Source: an uncultured Candidatus Saccharibacteria bacterium
GTDB lineage: Bacteria; Patescibacteriota; SICC01; CAYSOT01
DNA: 61,486 nucleotides
Reading direction: 5' to 3'
Assembly (NCBI GenBank): GCA_964432765.1
Contig: CAYSOT010000003.1
Location: 1-61,486 of the forward strand
Shown here: in pieces, positions 832-32,414 of the stretch
Position numbering within the stretch: the first letter of the stretch is position 1
How the letters are laid out: every line of letters starts with the position of its first letter
Notes under the pieces: generated by a model
Told to the model about the DNA's origin: nothing
What the model saw: the letters and a program-made list of their open reading frames with translations, nothing else
Database searches by the model: none
Position numbers and translations under genes: made by a program

Positions 832-913
832 TGAGGGTGGCAGGGATTGAACCTACCCGTCGCATTTTGTTCCCCGAACCGCGCGACGTCGTCCACCGAG
901 TGGACACACCCTC
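832..913 (-). ncRNA. tRNA-like cloverleaf lacking a canonical anticodon loop
   Basis: Acceptor GAGGGTG/CACCCTC+A; D-like arm GTCCA-CTCGG-TGGAC; central arm CGTCGC...GCGACG; T arm GTAGG-TTCAATC-CCTGC. Confidence 0.65.
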
Positions 914-2354: not shown

Positions 2355-4819
2355 GCAGCAACACGTTCTGCCTCAGGAAGTTTTATTGATAAGAGCGTAG
2401 AAATCCCCGTTTCATCCATGGTCACACCGTAGAGACGTTGGGCTGAGCGCATAGTATCGCGATTATGTGTGACGACTATGAATTGAGTTTGTTCTGAAAG
2501 CTGACCGAGAAGATCGGCGAAACGACTCGTGTTGGCCTCGTCGAGCGCTGCGTCTACTTCGTCGAGCATCACAAAGGGACTTGGGTTAACTGTAAGGATT
2601 GCAAATAGCAGAGCAACTGATGTGAGGGCTCTCTCGCCTCCCGATAGCATGGCCAGGCTCTGCACTCGTTTTCCAGGCGGTTGTGCCTTGATATCAATGC
2701 CGTACTCTGCGGCCCGCTCTTCTTCACCATCGTCCTGGATTAGCTCAAGATTGGCTGCTCCACCGCCAAAGAGAACTGTGAAGTACTTAGAAAACTCGGT
2801 AGCAATTTTTTCAAACGATTCCTTGAAGACACTTCGACTTTGTACCTCCAATTTTGCAATAATCTTTTCTAAATCCTCCTTGGCTTTGAGAAGATCGTTT
2901 GATTGACCTGACAAAAAGGTAAAGCGCTGCTCGACGGCGTCATGTTCTGCAGCTACGTCAGGATCTATCCCGCCAAGTTCCATAAGCCGTTTTTCAAGCT
3001 TCGAAATCTTCTCTTCGGAACCCAAAGAGATGTCGGGCAACTCCGTACCTTCGGGTGCAGGGAATTTACTACCAAGTTTCGACTTCGCTTCCGAAACTAA
3101 ATCTTCTAGGCGGGTTTCAAGCTTCGCGATGGCAACGTTGTTGTCGCCAAGCGCCGTTCGGTATGACTCAAGGTTTTGCTGCTTTGCGGCGCGCTTTCCT
3201 TCTGCTTCATTGACAGCCTCGAGATCTCCCATGCTGGCTTGCTGTTCGAGAGCAATTTGAGCTTCAATATCTCGAAGTTTTGGATCTAGAATTTCCTTTG
3301 CTGCAACTGCTTTCTTGAGCTCTGAATTGCAGTCTTTCCAAACTTTCTCGTCGTTCGATATTTTCTTACCAAGTTCCTCAATATGATTACCAAGTGCCTG
3401 CTCTTCCTGACGGCGTCGTTCTGCTGCGGCCTCATGAAGTCTCTGTGCTTCATCGCGACGCGCAAGTATGACTTTCAATTCAGATCGTTCGAGCTGCAGC
3501 TCATCGCGTTCTGTAAGCAGCTGTTGGGCTCGCTCAATGAGTGTATCGTCGGTTTCCCCACGAAGAGGCAGTGTCAATTTCTTGAGTTCAGCAGTAATTT
3601 TCGCAAGTTCAGAATGCGTGGCCTTCTTAGCAATGGCATTTTCTAAGCGCTCTATGACGTCCATGATCGCATCAACGTTTGGCCCCTGCGCAGCACCTGC
3701 TAACTGAGCCTGGAGCTGGCGGTGCTGACTTTCCAGCTCAGAAAGCTTGGTTTCAACTGTAGAGAGCTTCTTTTTTGTGGAGGTATCCTCTGGAAGCGCG
3801 TTCGATTGCGTATCACGAACCTCCGTCAGTCGGTTCTTTGCTTCGGTAATCTGCTCCTGTGATCGCTCTAGAGCAAGTTTTGAAACCTCTATCTTCATCT
3901 TCATTTCCGCAGCGGTTCTATCCATGCTTTCGTGTTCGTCTCGCAAAGCAGTTCGCTGCTCAAGCAAGGCGTGAAGACGCAGACCTTGCTGACGTTCTCG
4001 GAGCGACTTAACTTCCTCGTCAATTACTACAAGCTCTTTCTGGATCGAGTCGAATTCCTTCTTAAGCTCTTCGCGGCGCGCGGCTTCTTCTCGTAATTGC
4101 TGCTGCAGGCCACGGAAGCGATGGCCATAGAGTGAGAGATAGGCATCACCAAGCTCAGCTTCGATGCTCTCGCGTGCTGCAAGCCCCGCTGCTTGTTTGC
4201 GGAGAGTTTTCAGGCGAGGTTCAAGTTCGCGAAGTATGTCGGCAATCCGACCAAGATTAGTCGTTGTTTCGCTAAGCTTCCTTCTCGACTCATCGCGCTT
4301 CAGTTGAAACTGTTTGATCCCAGCTGCCTCTTCAAACAACCCTCGTCTCTGACTGGGTGTCTGTGATAAGACCTGATCAACGAGACCCTGGCCTATAACG
4401 GTATAATTTTCTGCTCCGATGCCTGCTACAGCAAAGGCATGCTGTAAATCTCCCAAGCGAACCTTGGCGCCGTTCACGAGATACTCCGAATCGCCGCTTC
4501 GGTAGAGACGCCGCGTCACAACGACTTCTTCGTAATCATAGGGCAAACGCTTAGATGAATTATCAAACGTCAGCGATACCTCAGCTAGGCTCATGGGGGC
4601 CTTCTTCGAAGTTCCAGAGAAAATCATATCTACGGAGGCCTTGCCGCGAACAGCCTTTTTCGACTGTTCTCCCAGCACCCAGCGAATCGCGTCGGCAATA
4701 TTCGATTTACCAGAACCATTCGGTCCAACCACTCCGGTTATACCTGGCTCAAACGTCAGGGTGGTGTTCTTCGCAAAGGACTTGAATCCGGAAAGCTCAA
4801 GTGAACGTAGAAAGCTCAT
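2351..4819 (-). CDS. smc: Short SMC-family chromosome segregation ATPase (822 aa)
   Basis: Walker A GPNGSGKSN, signature LSGGE, Walker B/D-loop MLDEVDAALD, long coiled coils, follows rnc. Confidence 0.9.
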   Translation of the reverse strand: MSFLRSLELSGFKSFAKNTTLTFEPGITGVVGPNGSGKSNIADAIRWVLGEQSKKAVRGKASVDMIFSGTSKKAPMSLAEVSLTFDNSSKRLPYDYEEVVVTRRLYRSGDSEYLVNGAKVRLGDLQHAFAVAGIGAENYTVIGQGLVDQVLSQTPSQRRGLFEEAAGIKQFQLKRDESRRKLSETTTNLGRIADILRELEPRLKTLRKQAAGLAARESIEAELGDAYLSLYGHRFRGLQQQLREEAARREELKKEFDSIQKELVVIDEEVKSLRERQQGLRLHALLEQRTALRDEHESMDRTAAEMKMKIEVSKLALERSQEQITEAKNRLTEVRDTQSNALPEDTSTKKKLSTVETKLSELESQHRQLQAQLAGAAQGPNVDAIMDVIERLENAIAKKATHSELAKITAELKKLTLPLRGETDDTLIERAQQLLTERDELQLERSELKVILARRDEAQRLHEAAAERRRQEEQALGNHIEELGKKISNDEKVWKDCNSELKKAVAAKEILDPKLRDIEAQIALEQQASMGDLEAVNEAEGKRAAKQQNLESYRTALGDNNVAIAKLETRLEDLVSEAKSKLGSKFPAPEGTELPDISLGSEEKISKLEKRLMELGGIDPDVAAEHDAVEQRFTFLSGQSNDLLKAKEDLEKIIAKLEVQSRSVFKESFEKIATEFSKYFTVLFGGGAANLELIQDDGEEERAAEYGIDIKAQPPGKRVQSLAMLSGGERALTSVALLFAILTVNPSPFVMLDEVDAALDEANTSRFADLLGQLSEQTQFIVVTHNRDTMRSAQRLYGVTMDETGISTLLSIKLPEAERVAA

Positions 4820-5511
4820 TTCGCCTCCAATTTAGAAGCGAGGGCAGCAGCGGCGGCGGCCTGCTCGGCTTGCTGCTTTGAGCCACCGCTACCTTGGCCG
4901 ACTTGGCGATCGCGAATATAAACCCCGACAGTGAACTCCTTAGCATGGTCTGGACCACTTGAGCTTAGGATCTCGTAGCGCGGTGTGATACTGAACTTAT
5001 CTTGCGCCTCTTCTTGAAGCGCGCTTTTTGGATCGCGGTCTTTTTTGCTTTCGATGATTTCTGGCAGAAGAACCACGACATGTCGATGAATAACCTCTTT
5101 GGCCACATCGTATCCTTGATCAAGATATAAAGCCCCAAGCAGCGCCTCAAAGGCGTTAGCTAGGAGAGCTTGGCGAGTCCGGCCACCACTCTTTTCCTCA
5201 CCGTGGGACATTAAGAGAGCCTCTCCCACACCAAGTGGGCCTGCGATCTTCGCGAGCATCTCTCCTCGAACAACCGCGGAACGCCAGCTGGTAAGCTCAC
5301 CTTCCGGATTTGGATATGTGGCATAGAGATGCTCAGTAATCACCAGTTCAAGGACGGCGTCACCTAGGAACTCCAGGCGCTCATTGTGTGGAAGATTGTG
5401 CGAGCGGTGCTCGTTCAAGTAGGAGCGATGTGTCAGTGCCGTCGACAACAAATCACGGTCTTTGAAACTCACCCCGAGGGCATTCTCGAGTTTGGCGATT
5501 CGATCAGGCAT
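4816..5511 (-). CDS. rnc: Ribonuclease III
   Basis: HNERLEFLGDAVLEL signature and C-terminal dsRBD (GPDHAKEF). Confidence 0.98.
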   Translation of the reverse strand: MPDRIAKLENALGVSFKDRDLLSTALTHRSYLNEHRSHNLPHNERLEFLGDAVLELVITEHLYATYPNPEGELTSWRSAVVRGEMLAKIAGPLGVGEALLMSHGEEKSGGRTRQALLANAFEALLGALYLDQGYDVAKEVIHRHVVVLLPEIIESKKDRDPKSALQEEAQDKFSITPRYEILSSSGPDHAKEFTVGVYIRDRQVGQGSGGSKQQAEQAAAAAALASKLEAK

Positions 5512-14565: not shown

Positions 14566-15894
14566 TCAAGCCACATTCTCCCCAAGCTCCTTTATGCGGC
14601 GCTTGAGATACTCGCTTGTGTTCCTGCCTGGGTCATCGAGGACCTCTTCGAGTAATTGCTGCATGATTTCACCAATCCGTGGCCCAGGAGCAATATCCAA
14701 GATCTTCATAACGTCGGTACCATTAACGACTAACATTCGTGTGTCAATCGGATCTTTCTGAACCTCTACAACGCGTTCCTGAAAATTTTGAAGCTTCTTC
14801 GTATAACCAATCTTGCAACCAGAGCCGAGCCTGTCGCCTACTCGTAAATCGACCAGATCCTGGATATTTTCTGGTCCAACCCGACGGATAATCCTGCGAA
14901 TGGCTTTGTCTGTGGACTCAAATTGAAACAGAAACATGTGATGTCTAACAAGATTCGTGACACGCTCAGTATCCGCTTTGGAAAATGCGAGCCGTTTCAT
15001 AATCTGGCGGGTCATGCGGGCACCGATTACTTCATGCCCGTGGAATGTTCGTTCTGCTTCCGGACCGTGCGCCGAGCGTGGCTTCCCAACATCGTGCAGG
15101 AGTGCCGCTAGGCGAACTAGCGGGTCTGTCGACGGCGTCGTCTGAAGCGAACGTATGGAGTGCTCCAGGACATCATATTTATGGTGTTTCGGCTGACTCA
15201 TGCTTTCACCCTCAAGCAGCTCCGGAATGATTTCTTTCAAAAGACCTACTTCATACAGCAAGCGAATTCCTCCGGCTGGGTCGCTTGATGCCAGAATTTT
15301 CATAAGTTCGTCTCGCACTCTCTCGCCAGATACATTTCGAATGTTTTGGGAGCCAACTACTATCGCATTACGCGTTTCTTTCTCGAGCTTAAATCCGAGC
15401 TGGACAGTGAAACGAACCGCGCGCATGAGACGAAGTGCGTCTTCCGTGAATCGCTGATCAGGATTTCCAACGGTGCGAACAAGATGTTTTTGCAAATCGA
15501 GTAAGCCACCGAAAGGATCAACAAGAGCGTCATCTCGCCATGCCATCGCGTTGATCGTGAAATCACGACGTGCGAGGTCTTCCTCGAGCGTCTTTAGAAA
15601 CGTCACTTTGCCTGGGTGCCTTGAATCTTCGTAGGCGCTCTCGCTGCGGTAGGTTGTGACCTCGTAAACATTTCGACCCACAATAACACCGACTGTACCA
15701 AAACTGTTTTCGTAGACCGTTTTCGAGAATACACGCCGTATTTCCTCGGGTGTGGCGTTCGTAGCGATATCCCAATCCTTGGGCACAACTTCGCGAACCA
15801 TATCCCGGACGCAACCGCCGACTAATACGGCCTCAAAGCCAGCCGCCTCCAGCTCGGCCAGAATACCTTGCACCTGTTTTGGCACATTTGTCAT
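14566..15894 (-). CDS. cca: CCA tRNA nucleotidyltransferase with HD domain
   Basis: VGGCVRD...KDWDIAT, RRDFTINA, EDALRLMRAVRF, LLHDVGK. A poly(A)-polymerase or partial CC/A-adding activity cannot be excluded. Confidence 0.85.
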   Translation of the reverse strand: MTNVPKQVQGILAELEAAGFEAVLVGGCVRDMVREVVPKDWDIATNATPEEIRRVFSKTVYENSFGTVGVIVGRNVYEVTTYRSESAYEDSRHPGKVTFLKTLEEDLARRDFTINAMAWRDDALVDPFGGLLDLQKHLVRTVGNPDQRFTEDALRLMRAVRFTVQLGFKLEKETRNAIVVGSQNIRNVSGERVRDELMKILASSDPAGGIRLLYEVGLLKEIIPELLEGESMSQPKHHKYDVLEHSIRSLQTTPSTDPLVRLAALLHDVGKPRSAHGPEAERTFHGHEVIGARMTRQIMKRLAFSKADTERVTNLVRHHMFLFQFESTDKAIRRIIRRVGPENIQDLVDLRVGDRLGSGCKIGYTKKLQNFQERVVEVQKDPIDTRMLVVNGTDVMKILDIAPGPRIGEIMQQLLEEVLDDPGRNTSEYLKRRIKELGENVA

Positions 15895-27625: not shown

Positions 27626-29335
27626 TTATATGCCAATAGTCGGAGAGGGGCTTGGAGATGGTTCAGGAGCGACAAAGTTGATTGTCACATTGTTATTGCG
27701 CTTTGGAACGGTACGAACCCAGAAGGGCGAAAGGGTAATTTTGACATCCTTGATACCGATTGCCGCCAATGCCTCTCTGGCAGCTTCTGGGGTTTTGCCC
27801 TCGACTGTGCGTTTTATCTCTTCTTTAGAAACTTGTAGCGTAACGGCTGTCTGGATGATGAGGTTGCCCGTTAGCGTATCAGCCGAGACGTTAGTTGCTG
27901 CAAACGAAAGTTTCGTCGCAGAATCGACGATATCTGACCCGACAGGCACTTTCCCGTTCAAGGCGGCATCGCGTAGCTTTCGGTAATCATCTTCGCTATA
28001 GGTAAAGTATCGTATTTGCACACGGCCTGTTACGGTAACCGTTTTTCCGGCAGAGCCAACTTTTGGCGAAGCGGTGCTGGTCAGAATATTGGTCGCAACC
28101 ACCTGAGGGCTTATTGCATAACCAACGGCCAGTTTCTGTTTCGCTTCAGCAAGTCCGTCTTGAGCGGCCGAAGCAGCTAGCTCGGCTCGCGCTTTGTCAA
28201 CATCGGCTTTTGAGACTTCGCTTCCCGGGGTTGAGGTGCCCCCCGAAAAGGCTGTCTCGACTTGCCCATACACTGCGTCAGTTCCTCCAAGCCCAGGAAT
28301 AGTTAAACGCGTCCCAGCAGGCAGATTACCGTCTTCACCGCCATCGTCAGCCGTCACAGACACTTTCTGCTGCCCGCCTGCAGGGACAGTAACAGCTGCC
28401 TGAGTACGGAAAATGCGACCGCTAGATGTTTGGAACCTAGTCTTATTCACAAGTGGCTGCGTCTTCGAGAGTGTGTTTACAACGACAATTTCGCCAGAGG
28501 CTTTCTCTCCAGCATTGCTTGTACCAGTCGTGTCTACTGTTGCTGAAGCGTCTTTGGTCACTTCAATCACTTTCGCCGGTAACGTACTTGTTTTCTGGTC
28601 GAAGCTCGCCGCACGAGCAGAAAAAATCACCGGTTGTGAAACTTCCAATGGTTCTGTTCTTGGAACAACCGCAAGCGTTGCTTTTGGCAAGAAGACGTAA
28701 CCTGCGACGGCAGCAAACGCGAGTGATCCAGCAGCAACACTGACCAATACCCGACGTCGACGCAGGATCGCGCCAAGCGCCAAACTCTTCTTTGGGCTCT
28801 TACGTTGTTTCTTTGCGGTCTCATCGTGTCGAGGGGTTTCCGGGTGCTCTTGTGTCTTTCCTTTGGTTGGCTTACCCGCCTTGACCTTCTTTATCGGTAC
28901 AACTATCGCCCCGGGAACTTCTTTTTCATCTGCCGAATCTGCCTGGGCTGTTTCCTTAACGGTTTCTTTAATCTCGTGCTTCTCAAGTTTAGCTGGCTCG
29001 TCGGTGCGCGGCTTTTTCTTGAATGCAATTGCCACGGGAGTGCCCGGCTTTTCGCTGGTCGCTGTTTTTGTGACTTTCTCAACTTCTGGCAGTCGTTGAT
29101 GCACTGTAAGGCCAACGGCTGATGCGAGATTGCGACCAGTTTTATCGGTCGTGACTATTGAGAGGCGCTTTCCCATTGCCTCACTTTGGCGACGTAGCAA
29201 CTTTAGGTTGATGATGCTCTGGAGGATGCCGGCCCGCTTCGGTACGACAATCGCAATTTCCTGATCATCAATCGCCTTTAGCCGATCTACGACCGAAGTG
29301 ATTTCTTCATCTGGCTCGAGATAGAGTGCTTTCAT
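27626..29335 (-). CDS. Bitopic membrane protein with a baseplate-J-like extracellular region
   Basis: N-terminal LYLEPDEEITSVVDRL domain, K-rich linker, TM, then KTRFQTSSGRIFRT...VTADDGGEDGNL; baseplate-J likeness is from memory. Confidence 0.65.
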   Translation of the reverse strand: MKALYLEPDEEITSVVDRLKAIDDQEIAIVVPKRAGILQSIINLKLLRRQSEAMGKRLSIVTTDKTGRNLASAVGLTVHQRLPEVEKVTKTATSEKPGTPVAIAFKKKPRTDEPAKLEKHEIKETVKETAQADSADEKEVPGAIVVPIKKVKAGKPTKGKTQEHPETPRHDETAKKQRKSPKKSLALGAILRRRRVLVSVAAGSLAFAAVAGYVFLPKATLAVVPRTEPLEVSQPVIFSARAASFDQKTSTLPAKVIEVTKDASATVDTTGTSNAGEKASGEIVVVNTLSKTQPLVNKTRFQTSSGRIFRTQAAVTVPAGGQQKVSVTADDGGEDGNLPAGTRLTIPGLGGTDAVYGQVETAFSGGTSTPGSEVSKADVDKARAELAASAAQDGLAEAKQKLAVGYAISPQVVATNILTSTASPKVGSAGKTVTVTGRVQIRYFTYSEDDYRKLRDAALNGKVPVGSDIVDSATKLSFAATNVSADTLTGNLIIQTAVTLQVSKEEIKRTVEGKTPEAAREALAAIGIKDVKITLSPFWVRTVPKRNNNVTINFVAPEPSPSPSPTIGI

Positions 29336-30665: not shown

Positions 30666-32414
30666 TTACTCCACCACCGCCTTCACGCGCCGCACTCCGG
30701 CCCCAACAGACTCTTGTTTCGTAATTCTGAAGTTACCAATTAAACCAGTATGCGTAACATGAGGACCGCCGCAGAATTCTTTTGAGGTCGCACTTTCTGG
30801 ATCTCCGACAAAGTAGACTGAAACAGTCTCGGGATATTTGTGTCCGAATTCCATTTGGGCACCGATTCGCTCAGCCTCAGCTCTTGGCATCTCTCGACGC
30901 GTAACTTGGAGGTCTTCTTTAATCCACTCATTCACCTGTGCTTCAATTTGGTGTACTTGCTCGGGAGTTAGCTTTTCGGGATGTGAAAAGTCGAATCGTA
31001 GGCGCTCGGCTGTAATGTTCGAACCACGCTGCTTCACATGTTCACCAAGCACATTCTGCAGGGCAGCATTCAGAAGGTGGGTCGCGGTATGAAGCTTCAC
31101 TACTTCATCTGAGTGGTCGGCGAGACCGCCGGCAAACTTCTGTTCTGCCCCACTGCGTGACTTTGCCTGGTGCTCTGCAAACGCTGCCTTAAAATCACGG
31201 CGCAGGGCCACTTCATCAATATCGGCTTTATGCTGCTTCAGTTCTTCGATTCCCAGCTCAAAAGGAAAACCATAGGTCTCAAACAAGAAAAAGAGCTCTT
31301 TACCTGTAAGCGTTTTACGCTTTTCAAACTCCTTAATACCACGTTCTATGGTGCGAGCGAACTTCGCCTCTTCTCCTGTGAGCTCAGCGATAATCGCGCC
31401 CTCTTCTCTCGTTAACTCTGGGTAGGCCGCCGCATATTCACCGATAACCGCTCGCGCAATTGTCTCTACAAATGGCACTTCAATGCCGAGATGCCTTGCC
31501 TGCCGTATCGCCCGTCGAATGAGCCGCCGAAGAATGTAGCCGCGTTCTACGTTTGAGGGCTTCACGCCATCTGCCACCATAAATGTTGCGGCCTTTAAGT
31601 GATCAGCGACGATGCGTGCAGCGCGTAGGTCGTATTTTTTTGAAATTTTTGCAATGCTCCCAAGTAACGGTGCAAAGAGGTCCGTGTCGTAAATATTGTC
31701 TGCCTCTTGCATGATCGCGCTGATACGCTCGAGACCCATTCCAGTGTCTACGTTACGCTGCGCCAAAGCCTCAAATGTGCCTTCATGCGTTTTGTTGTAC
31801 TGCATGAAGACGTTATTCCAAACTTCAATCCAGCGATCATCCGTCGCCGGCTCTCCGCTTGGCTTTCCGTCACCTACCCAATAAAAGACCTCTGTATCTG
31901 GACCACACGGACCTGTCTCGCCGGCTGGTCCCCACCAGTTGTCTTCTTTGCCATAGTAGTAAACCCGATCGCCTGGGAAATTTGGTTGTTTCCGCCAGAT
32001 GGTAGCCGCTTCTTCATCGCGCGGCGCGTCATCATCCCCGGCAAAAACTGAAACCGCCATTTGGTCTGCCTTGAGCCCAAGCACTTTGGTAAGAAATTCC
32101 CACGTCCAAGCTATCGACTCTTCTTTAAAATAATCACCGAGCGACCAGTTCCCGAGCATTTCCAGGAATGTAGCATGCGTATCGTCGCCAACTTCATCAA
32201 TATCTGTGGTGCGGATACATTTCTGAACGCTCGCAAGTCGTTTGCCACCAGGGTGAGGCTCTCCAAGCAGATAAGGGACTAGTGGATGCATACCTGCCGT
32301 AATAAAAAGAACCGTTGGATCGTGTTGTGGAACTACCGGAGCACTGGGCAATATTGCATGCCCCCGATCAGCAAAGAAGGACAGAAAAGCCGATCTGATC
32401 TCGCCCGACTTCAT
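30666..32414 (-). CDS. alaS: Alanine--tRNA ligase, lacking the C-Ala domain (582 aa)
   Basis: QKCIRT, HATFLEMLGNWSLGDYFK, DTGMGLER, HTATHLL and CGGPH editing motifs. Confidence 0.97.
   Translation of the reverse strand: MKSGEIRSAFLSFFADRGHAILPSAPVVPQHDPTVLFITAGMHPLVPYLLGEPHPGGKRLASVQKCIRTTDIDEVGDDTHATFLEMLGNWSLGDYFKEESIAWTWEFLTKVLGLKADQMAVSVFAGDDDAPRDEEAATIWRKQPNFPGDRVYYYGKEDNWWGPAGETGPCGPDTEVFYWVGDGKPSGEPATDDRWIEVWNNVFMQYNKTHEGTFEALAQRNVDTGMGLERISAIMQEADNIYDTDLFAPLLGSIAKISKKYDLRAARIVADHLKAATFMVADGVKPSNVERGYILRRLIRRAIRQARHLGIEVPFVETIARAVIGEYAAAYPELTREEGAIIAELTGEEAKFARTIERGIKEFEKRKTLTGKELFFLFETYGFPFELGIEELKQHKADIDEVALRRDFKAAFAEHQAKSRSGAEQKFAGGLADHSDEVVKLHTATHLLNAALQNVLGEHVKQRGSNITAERLRFDFSHPEKLTPEQVHQIEAQVNEWIKEDLQVTRREMPRAEAERIGAQMEFGHKYPETVSVYFVGDPESATSKEFCGGPHVTHTGLIGNFRITKQESVGAGVRRVKAVVE

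Follow-up and report, generated by a model that had tools for sequence, protein, structure and literature searches.

A conserved tRNA-shaped element without an anticodon loop ahead of trmD in a Candidatus Saccharibacteria bacterium

An anticodon-less cloverleaf and its relation to known tRNA mimics

For RNase P, RNase Z and the CCA-adding enzyme, the minimal substrate consists of the acceptor/T helix, the T loop and the discriminator of a transfer RNA (tRNA). In the MALAT1 and MEN-beta transcripts, a cloverleaf of the mascRNA type is excised by RNase P and RNase Z and then receives CCA. To our knowledge, bacterial tRNA mimics that are neither transfer-messenger RNA (tmRNA) nor Y RNA are rare, and the RNA biology of Patescibacteria is almost unexplored. 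Among the bacterial Y RNAs (Chen et al. 2014), YrlA of Mycobacterium smegmatis is a tRNA mimic that is cut by RNase P RNA in vitro, with a role in cleavage for its acceptor-like stem of 7 base pairs (bp), and that carries CCA in vivo; YrlA RNAs are encoded beside the rsr gene for the TROVE-domain protein Ro60 and have a GNCGAAN0-1G motif and a terminal Ro60-binding helix (PMC4201824). Here, a tRNA-like four-way junction of 82 nucleotides (nt) is described at positions 832-913, on the minus strand, of a 61,486-nt stretch of DNA (hereafter the window) from an uncultured Candidatus Saccharibacteria bacterium (Patescibacteria, CPR; contig CAYSOT010000003.1). Its site is a non-coding gap of 868 nt (381-1248) that separates a KH-domain (KhpA-like) gene from trmD, all on the minus strand. 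It cannot decode, yet it is clearly under selection, and it belongs to a strongly conserved, structured and uncharacterised predicted RNA of ~760 nt that precedes trmD.

Both the minimum free energy fold and the centroid fold of the element are the same four-way junction (-39.5 kcal/mol, z = -3.5); of 200 dinucleotide shuffles, not one folded as well. Read from its 5' G (913) to its discriminator A (832), the RNA starts with the acceptor strand GAGGGUG (907-913), which forms 7 perfect bp with CACCCUC (833-839). The hairpin in the D-arm position, H1 (890-906; UGUCCAC-UCG-GUGGACG), abuts or stacks on the acceptor stem and is non-canonical as a D arm, with 7 bp and a UCG triloop. After a single A, the hairpin in the anticodon-arm position, H2 (858-888), consists of a 7-bp stem, an internal loop and the apical UUCGGGGAA (870-878). 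Its stem, CGUCGC(G)/(U)GCGACG, encloses 17-19 nt (CG-GUUC-GGG-GAAC-AAAA) containing the mini-hairpin GUUC-GGG-GAAC, and H2 has neither a 7-nt loop nor the U33/R37 pattern. A variable region of 1 nt (G) leads to the T arm (840-856), where a 5-bp stem (GUAGG/CCUGC) carries a canonical 7-nt loop, UUCAAUC, at 845-851. CCA is not encoded. The top half of a tRNA is retained, namely a 12-bp coaxial acceptor/T helix, a canonical T loop and the discriminator A.

Most of this anatomy had been recognised in an initial annotation of the region made from the sequence alone. The perfect 7-bp acceptor stem with discriminator A (now placed on the minus strand), the T arm with its TTCAATC loop, the CGTCGC...GCGACG arm with the GTTC-GGG-GAAC mini-hairpin, the near absence of a variable region and the overall tRNA shape without an anticodon loop are all present. 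Its description of a GG-containing D-like hairpin was correct for the window allele only: the arm folds as a 7-bp/triloop hairpin, and the GG is lost in the homologs (CUCGG in the window vs UUCAA and UUUUG). A G18G19-T-loop elbow is therefore no conserved feature, and the term "elbow mimic" is not supported.

Despite its shape, the element lies outside the tRNA, tRNA-Sec, tmRNA and YrlA families. The Rfam tRNA model (RF00005; gathering threshold 29 bits) gave no match to it at E <= 10, and ARAGORN made no call. Of the tRNA hallmarks, the element has the cloverleaf, an acceptor stem of 7 bp, a T arm (5-bp stem, 7-nt UUCRANY loop) and the discriminator; the 5-bp anticodon stem with a 7-nt loop (U33, purine 37) is missing, a 7-bp stem with an internal mini-hairpin standing in its place, and the 3-4-bp D arm with conserved G18 G19 is replaced by a 7-bp stem with a triloop. 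The best match within the clan was tRNA-Sec (RF01852; 19.3 bits, E = 0.56, threshold 47 bits). The defining features of that family, an 8+5 or 9+4 top half, a long variable arm and a UCA anticodon, are not those of the element, which has a 7+5 top half and no UCA loop. The likeness to the tRNA-like domain of tmRNA, which is processed by tRNA enzymes, is that the acceptor/T-arm top half is retained while the D and anticodon parts are replaced. However, the whole cloverleaf of the element is contiguous in 82 nt, position 3:70 is G-C instead of G3.U70, there is no tag reading frame and no pseudoknot, and ARAGORN reports no tmRNA in the window, in agreement with the initial view that the element is not tmRNA-like.

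With tRNA genes and pseudogenes the element shares cloverleaf topology, the 7+5-bp top half, the T loop, the discriminator, the lack of an encoded CCA and a tRNA-adjacent place in an operon. It differs from tRNA genes in having no anticodon loop or canonical D arm, a 1-nt variable region and a score below the Rfam tRNA threshold, and from tRNA pseudogenes in being under purifying selection, as described below.

Homologs and the distribution of constraint

Comparison of alleles was possible for three species-level lineages. Contigs with an identical KH protein (L081-L083) have a gap 100% identical to that of the window and are hence uninformative. In L084, a contig with a KH protein of 93% identity, the whole gap is present in a variant form, the element lying at L084:4368-4447. 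The third allele, L205:2126-2205, comes from a metagenome contig found through a scan for tRNA-Asn genes with long D loops, and the same version is identical in three further independent assemblies (L209-L211); three distinct alleles are known. A covariance model built from the first two (R1; window and L084) scored 104 bits on the window element, 81-100 bits on the homologs and 11-26 bits on real tRNAs; neither the window nor ~1.1 Mb of other loci yielded a second copy.

The nearest KH-protein loci in GTDB belong to metagenome-assembled genomes of Saccharibacteria, Paceibacterota and Kaiserbacteria. Among 80 GTDB loci around KH homologs there was no homolog of the gap, and in most of them trmD directly follows the KH gene; a 770-nt gap in one locus (L025) proved unrelated. 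A blastn search of phages and plasmids with the whole gap matched only the 3' half of its tRNA-Asn gene, to tRNA-Asn genes, while acceptor/T-arm pattern scans of viral_contigs and the metagenome gave zero matches. A literature search on tRNA-like elements in Patescibacteria or near trmD found nothing relevant.

Fourfold-degenerate sites of the KH, SMC and TrmD genes, compared between the window and L084, served as a neutral yardstick. These sites differ at 361/513 positions (70%) and are essentially saturated, whereas the element differs at 20/82 positions (24%; binomial P(<= 20/82 | 0.70) ~1e-17). For the same pair, the whole non-coding transcript diverges by 20% and the immediate flanks of the element by 35-42%. 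Because the element differs by 24% vs 70% at fourfold sites, a neutrally decaying pseudogene is excluded, and the comparison indicates that the element is under purifying selection. The decay of stems that the initial annotation had named as the mark of a pseudogene was not seen: 85/87 pair cells are standard across the three alleles, and the two that are not are A.C mismatches, both in the L205-type allele.

Two pairs change on both sides, each from C-G to U-A: 14:18 in H1, which covaries over the three homologs (C-G, U-A, U.G), and 29:53 in H2 (C-G or U-A among alleles). A further seven pairs change on one side via G.U; only one-sided changes occur at the H1 pairs 8:24 and 10:22, and the T stem shows U.G to C-G and G-C to G.U.

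Variation is unevenly distributed. Paired columns vary less often than unpaired ones (12/58 vs 12/24, p = 0.015), and columns of the acceptor/T-arm top half vary less often than those of the bottom half (4/32 vs 20/50, p = 0.012). The acceptor 5' strand is invariant across the three lineages, with a single A.C mismatch (2:80) in the L205-type allele, and position 60 is the sole variable site of the T loop. The interior of H2 changes in length and sequence among the three alleles (15-17 nt enclosed). Its mini-hairpin is weakly kept in L084, where the changed A belongs to the main H2 stem. The H2 apex, UUYGGGGAA, is kept in 3/3 lineages while the neighbouring loop bases vary, and the 9-nt flank 5' of the element, GCCGUCACG, is invariant among alleles. 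As judged from these alleles, constraint is at its strongest in the top half, which is what RNase P, RNase Z and the CCA-adding enzyme recognise.

A candidate processing signal and its alternatives

The prerequisites of a mascRNA-type element are present: the 12-bp acceptor/T helix, the T loop, the discriminator, the lack of an encoded CCA and a gene for the CCA-adding enzyme in the window (14566-15894). The tRNA genes in the window all lack an encoded CCA, and since the CCA-adding enzyme is encoded, 3' cleavage followed by CCA addition is the organism's normal route. As in the MALAT1 and MEN-beta transcripts, a cloverleaf without an anticodon loop lies inside a longer non-coding transcript, and excision by RNase P and RNase Z is proposed here to set the ends of the flanking RNAs while the small product would receive CCA. 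The mascRNA elements differ in being eukaryotic, nuclear and unrelated in sequence, while this element lies in a bacterial tRNA operon and its processing is proposed. YrlA, in its M. smegmatis version, likewise shares the T arm and the 7-bp acceptor-like stem of a bacterial tRNA mimic, but it has a Ro60-binding end stem, GNCGAAN0-1G, conservation of the D loop and Levitt pair and an rsr neighbour, none of which was found at the element. The element is a tRNA mimic whose proposed working is closest to mascRNA-type punctuation and to the tRNA module of M. smegmatis YrlA.

The favoured reading, quite possible though somewhat short of probable, is that a tRNA-derived module has been kept for RNase P, RNase Z and the CCA-adding enzyme to act on, and so serves as punctuation in a polycistronic RNA. 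The element would descend from a tRNA gene that lost all its decoding features and retained the acceptor/T-arm top half; a tRNA-gene origin is supported because the same slot hosts tRNA operons with aberrant tRNA-like genes in relatives (see below). Transcription would run along the minus strand within a polycistronic non-coding RNA of ~760 nt, in the predicted order promoter, hairpin, tRNA-Asn-type gene, hairpin, spacer, element, structured RNA, terminator-like hairpin and trmD. That a promoter-like site and a terminator-like hairpin flank the unit shared by the tRNA-Asn gene and the element counts in favour of punctuation. The tRNA end-maturation enzymes would treat the element as a pre-tRNA, with an RNase P cut at the 5' G (913), an RNase Z-type cut after the discriminator A (832) and possible extension of the released element by the CCA-adding enzyme. 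Such cuts would part the tRNA-containing 5' portion from the conserved 3' RNA and free a tRNA-like by-product of 82-85 nt. The initial annotation had suggested "a processing signal or a free tRNA-like small RNA", and this stands in part, the concentration of constraint on the acceptor/T-arm half being in keeping with it. Should processing be confirmed, bacteria would have their own version of the mascRNA/MALAT1 principle, the use of a tRNA shape to punctuate RNA.

Several observations weigh against punctuation. The covariation check proposed at the outset gave the two pairs changed on both sides, but with three sequences the shuffle control is not significant (190/500), so that covariation alone proves nothing. 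Between L084 and L205, a short branch, divergence peaks locally at the element (12.5% vs 4.2% for the transcript and ~20% at fourfold sites), and the bottom half of the element is therefore only loosely constrained. The L205-type allele, identical on four independent contigs, carries one A.C mismatch in the acceptor stem (2:80) and another at the top of H2. The apex UUYGGGGAA and the invariant flank GCCGUCACG are not explained by pure punctuation, and the stable hairpins that begin 2-4 nt past both discriminators, that of the tRNA-Asn gene and that of the element, might hinder RNase Z.

Two other readings are less likely. It is doubtful, if worth considering, that the released tRNA-like RNA is itself functional, as a stable and probably CCA-tailed decoy, regulator or protein partner acting in trans through the H2 apex and a free T loop. 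The strong purifying selection on the element agrees with this, as does the apex, invariant bar its Y while adjacent loop bases change, and the T loop, having no conserved D-loop partner, would be free for another contact; processed, CCA-tailed tRNA mimics provide a precedent (PMC4201824). Set against these points, no partner protein or target was identified, the element occurs as one copy per genome window in three species-level lineages only, and the bottom half, where specificity would be expected to reside, evolves fast. About as unlikely is that the element stays unexcised, as a tRNA-mimic arm in cis of a larger RNA or trmD leader that is bound by a tRNA-recognising factor, perhaps TrmD, and tied to terminator read-through. 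Shuffled sequences fold much less well than the whole gap (z = -9.9), which is conserved as one unit, and the terminator-like hairpin ends ~30 nt ahead of the trmD start with no promoter-like site between them in a consensus scan. Long-range pairings are also possible. The invariant 5' flank GCCGUCA can pair with UGAUGGC (664-658), and the apex UCGGGGA (877-871) is perfectly complementary to UCCCCGA (705-699), ~170 nt downstream in the same predicted transcript. In L084, 5-6 bp of the latter are kept (UUUGGGG vs UCCCAA), with C-G replaced by U-A; L205 has a C.A mismatch. As these pairings are otherwise invariant, they allow no covariation test, and the apex complementarity could be chance in a GC-rich RNA. 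The slots of L213 and L215, with non-homologous RNAs, lack the element, L086 has a convergent open reading frame (ORF) between its RNA and trmD, and Rfam gave no match to a riboswitch or leader family. TrmD has tRNA-Pro among its key substrates, and the H2 apex resembles the anticodon loop of tRNA-Pro(YGG), UUYGGGA, with one extra G; this resemblance was noticed after the fact. It is a long shot that the element is a substrate mimic in a long trmD leader, its apex imitating the G36-G37 loop of tRNA-Pro(YGG) such that TrmD or the m1G37 (1-methylguanosine 37) status is sensed and coupled to terminator read-through. If true, a tRNA-modification enzyme would regulate itself through a tRNA-mimic leader within a new structured RNA of ~760 nt.

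The remaining explanations concern descent without a new role, or membership in a known class. A functionless, decaying tRNA pseudogene that rides along in a conserved transcript would account for the lost anticodon loop, D-loop signature and variable loop, for the A.C mismatches of the L205-type allele, for the divergence hot spot between L084 and L205 and for the frequency of aberrant tRNA-like genes in the KH-trmD slot of relatives. It is nevertheless very unlikely given a divergence of about 1/3 of the saturated neutral level, five intact helices, and stems and top half that vary less than loops and bottom half, respectively. Still less credible is the Y RNA analogy of the initial annotation, a YrlA-type RNA tethering Ro60/Rsr, even though a T arm and a 7-bp acceptor-like stem also characterise the M. 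smegmatis RNA. The YrlA model (RF02553) gave no match at E <= 10 in 380-1260, so that of the two models proposed for cmsearch, tRNA and YrlA, neither matches the element; the GNCGAAN0-1G motif is absent from the 82 nt, and the two ends of the RNA pair as a tRNA-type acceptor stem, not as a Ro60-binding helix. The search for Ro60/rsr suggested at the same time found no TROVE domain among the ten ORFs of 415-582 amino acids (aa) tested in the 61-kb window, and the neighbours of the element are khpA-like, rpsP, smc, rnc, trmD and uvrB instead of rsr. A working decoder tRNA with an intron or an expanded loop in its anticodon arm deserves equally little credence. The adjacent tRNA-Asn gene does tolerate a hairpin insert in its D loop, and other tRNA genes in the metagenome carry inserts after position 37, but no contiguous deletion in H2 yields a 5-bp stem and 7-nt loop with U33 and R37, the H2 interior varies in length and sequence over the three alleles, and neither Rfam nor ARAGORN recognises a tRNA.

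The KH-trmD slot and the adjacent tRNA-Asn gene

The gap has a G+C content of 58% vs ~51% for the genome. It is bordered upstream by the KH-domain gene (1249-1767) and downstream by trmD (start codon at 380). Comparison of the window with L084 shows 15 compensatory pairs across the gap. A promoter-like TTGACA (1203-1198), a 17-nt spacer and TACTGT (1180-1175) precede a conserved leader, GUCGCUCUUUGAAA. The consensus promoter scan did not call this putative promoter, whose -10 is weak; it is conserved in the window, L084, L205 and L086, and the leader motif occurs also in L215. Hairpin A (1097-1144; inverted repeat I1) has one compensatory change, G-C to A-U, and ends at position -1 of the tRNA-Asn(GUU)-type gene (1008-1096; Rfam tRNA 59.3 bits), which lies 94 nt upstream of the element in the same orientation. 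Hairpin B (970-1006), present in predicted folds, begins 2 nt past the tRNA-Asn discriminator and is followed by a variable spacer; L215 has its equivalent after its own tRNA.

On the 3' side of the element, hairpin C (808-828) begins 4 nt past the discriminator and has a compensatory change at 822:811, G-C to A-U. It is followed by a conserved structured non-coding RNA (409-807) that ends with a long hairpin (498-419) and a U run (419-409). Over 405-699, the window and L084 diverge by 6-14%, where their fourfold sites reach 70%, and several compensatory pairs are seen. Coding potential of 381-830 was ruled out by 1-2-nt indels scattered between the alleles. The rest of the gap matches no Rfam family at the gathering threshold (window) or the E-value threshold (380-1260), and there is no Rfam support for the downstream RNA as RNase P RNA, signal recognition particle (SRP) RNA, 6S, T-box or GOLLD/ROOL. 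A stem enclosing the element (774-786/941-953), in a Y-RNA-like arrangement, was also considered and, checked by eye, is not kept in L084.

A TrmD-based search reached further lineages at 72-74% TrmD identity, several of which have GC-rich gaps of 700-1100 nt in the KH-trmD slot. The L213/L214 slot (L213:1786-2500) holds a structured RNA without a tRNA. In L215 (721-1684), a class-I tRNA with anticodon CGA and discriminator U (809-880) precedes a structured RNA, and in L217/L218 (L217:1122-2000) an aberrant tRNA (L217:1249-1320; 37 bits) with an odd C-rich 12-nt anticodon region is followed by tRNA-Ala(GGC), tRNA-Phe(GAA), a terminator and a small ORF. The L086 slot (4017-5134) contains a GC-rich structured RNA and the convergent ORF mentioned above. 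No gap exists at the slot in L219 and L087. A similar promoter-like site and a leader motif (…TCGYTCTTTGAAA) are common to the sister-lineage slots, each of which has its own terminator just before trmD or the small ORF, while the RNA bodies are unalignable. Rfam searches of the gaps of L084, L086, L213-L215, L217 and L220 gave no family matching the non-tRNA parts.

The L220 slot (910-1993) contains two tRNA-like genes in succession. The 98-nt gene (L220:1035-1132) lacks an anticodon but has A73, a canonical T arm and an acceptor stem of 7 bp; UCCACUCGG occurs both in its first hairpin and in H1 of the window element. The 68-nt gene (L220:1145-1212) has a truncated D arm and a 10-nt "anticodon" loop. 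Together with their L217 counterpart, these genes resemble the element in slot, orientation, 7-bp acceptor stem, canonical T arm and abnormal bottom half; they are otherwise unalignable with it and 68-98 nt long, and specific homology is suggestive only (R1 14.8 bits). A tRNA of L086 with an 8-nt loop, UUCACACA (L086:1827-1900), and the tRNA L215:809-880 share a backbone (…GAGCGUCUNC…AGGUCGUGGGUUC…) and the discriminator U with the window tRNA-Asn-type gene, and the 68-nt element of L220 looks like a degenerate relative of this type. The KH-trmD slot appears to be a hot spot for RNA-gene turnover. From these sequences, it behaves like a site for tRNA operons, where tRNA genes arrive, are remodelled and in part turn into non-decoding tRNA-like genes.

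The tRNA-Asn(GUU)-type gene at 1008-1096 is itself unusual. A 16-18-nt hairpin is inserted in its D loop right after A14-G15, which leaves 21 D-loop bases unaligned in Rfam. Outside the insert the D arm is otherwise canonical, as in L084 (GCUCAG[GUGUGGUUCAUUCCGCAC]UUCGGUAGAGC); homologs of the gene are at L084:4181-4272 and L205:1939-2030. Bacterial tRNA-Asn normally has G73, and the discriminator of the window gene is U. ARAGORN misses the window gene and mistypes its homologs as Ser(ACT) or "???". An archaeal intron of the bulge-helix-bulge (BHB) type was ruled out as an explanation of the insert: its helix of 4-6 bp is flanked directly and lacks 3-nt bulges.

A pattern scan of the metagenome for tRNA-Asn(GUU) genes in which 14-30 nt separate GCUCAG from AGAGC returned at least 120 loci (L089-L208). 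Among the matches listed, ~90 look like true D-loop inserts and 16 are partial tandem duplications; 72 distinct D-loop inserts were counted among them, 61 with a hairpin of at least 4 bp at the same position. Some of the listed matches also carry inserts after position 37 or in the T loop. Two long contigs among them look bacterial, one with a NiFe hydrogenase and GltE/PilW-like proteins, the other with a bacterial-type methionyl-tRNA synthetase. A literature search found no paper describing hairpin inserts in the D loop of tRNA-Asn. Such inserts are widespread in tRNA-Asn genes and are missed or mistyped by standard tRNA finders, which affects automated annotation.

Some other genes of the window have unusual architectures. 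The KH-domain protein (1249-1767) and ribosomal protein S16 (1780-2304), both on the minus strand, have acidic low-complexity C-terminal tails of ~90-100 residues, and the KH tail is conserved in the closest relatives. The alanyl-tRNA synthetase (30666-32414, minus) is only 582 aa long and comprises the catalytic and editing-associated SAD domains without the long C-terminal part. Finally, a 569-aa ORF at 27626-29335 (minus) has a weak Baseplate_J-like match.

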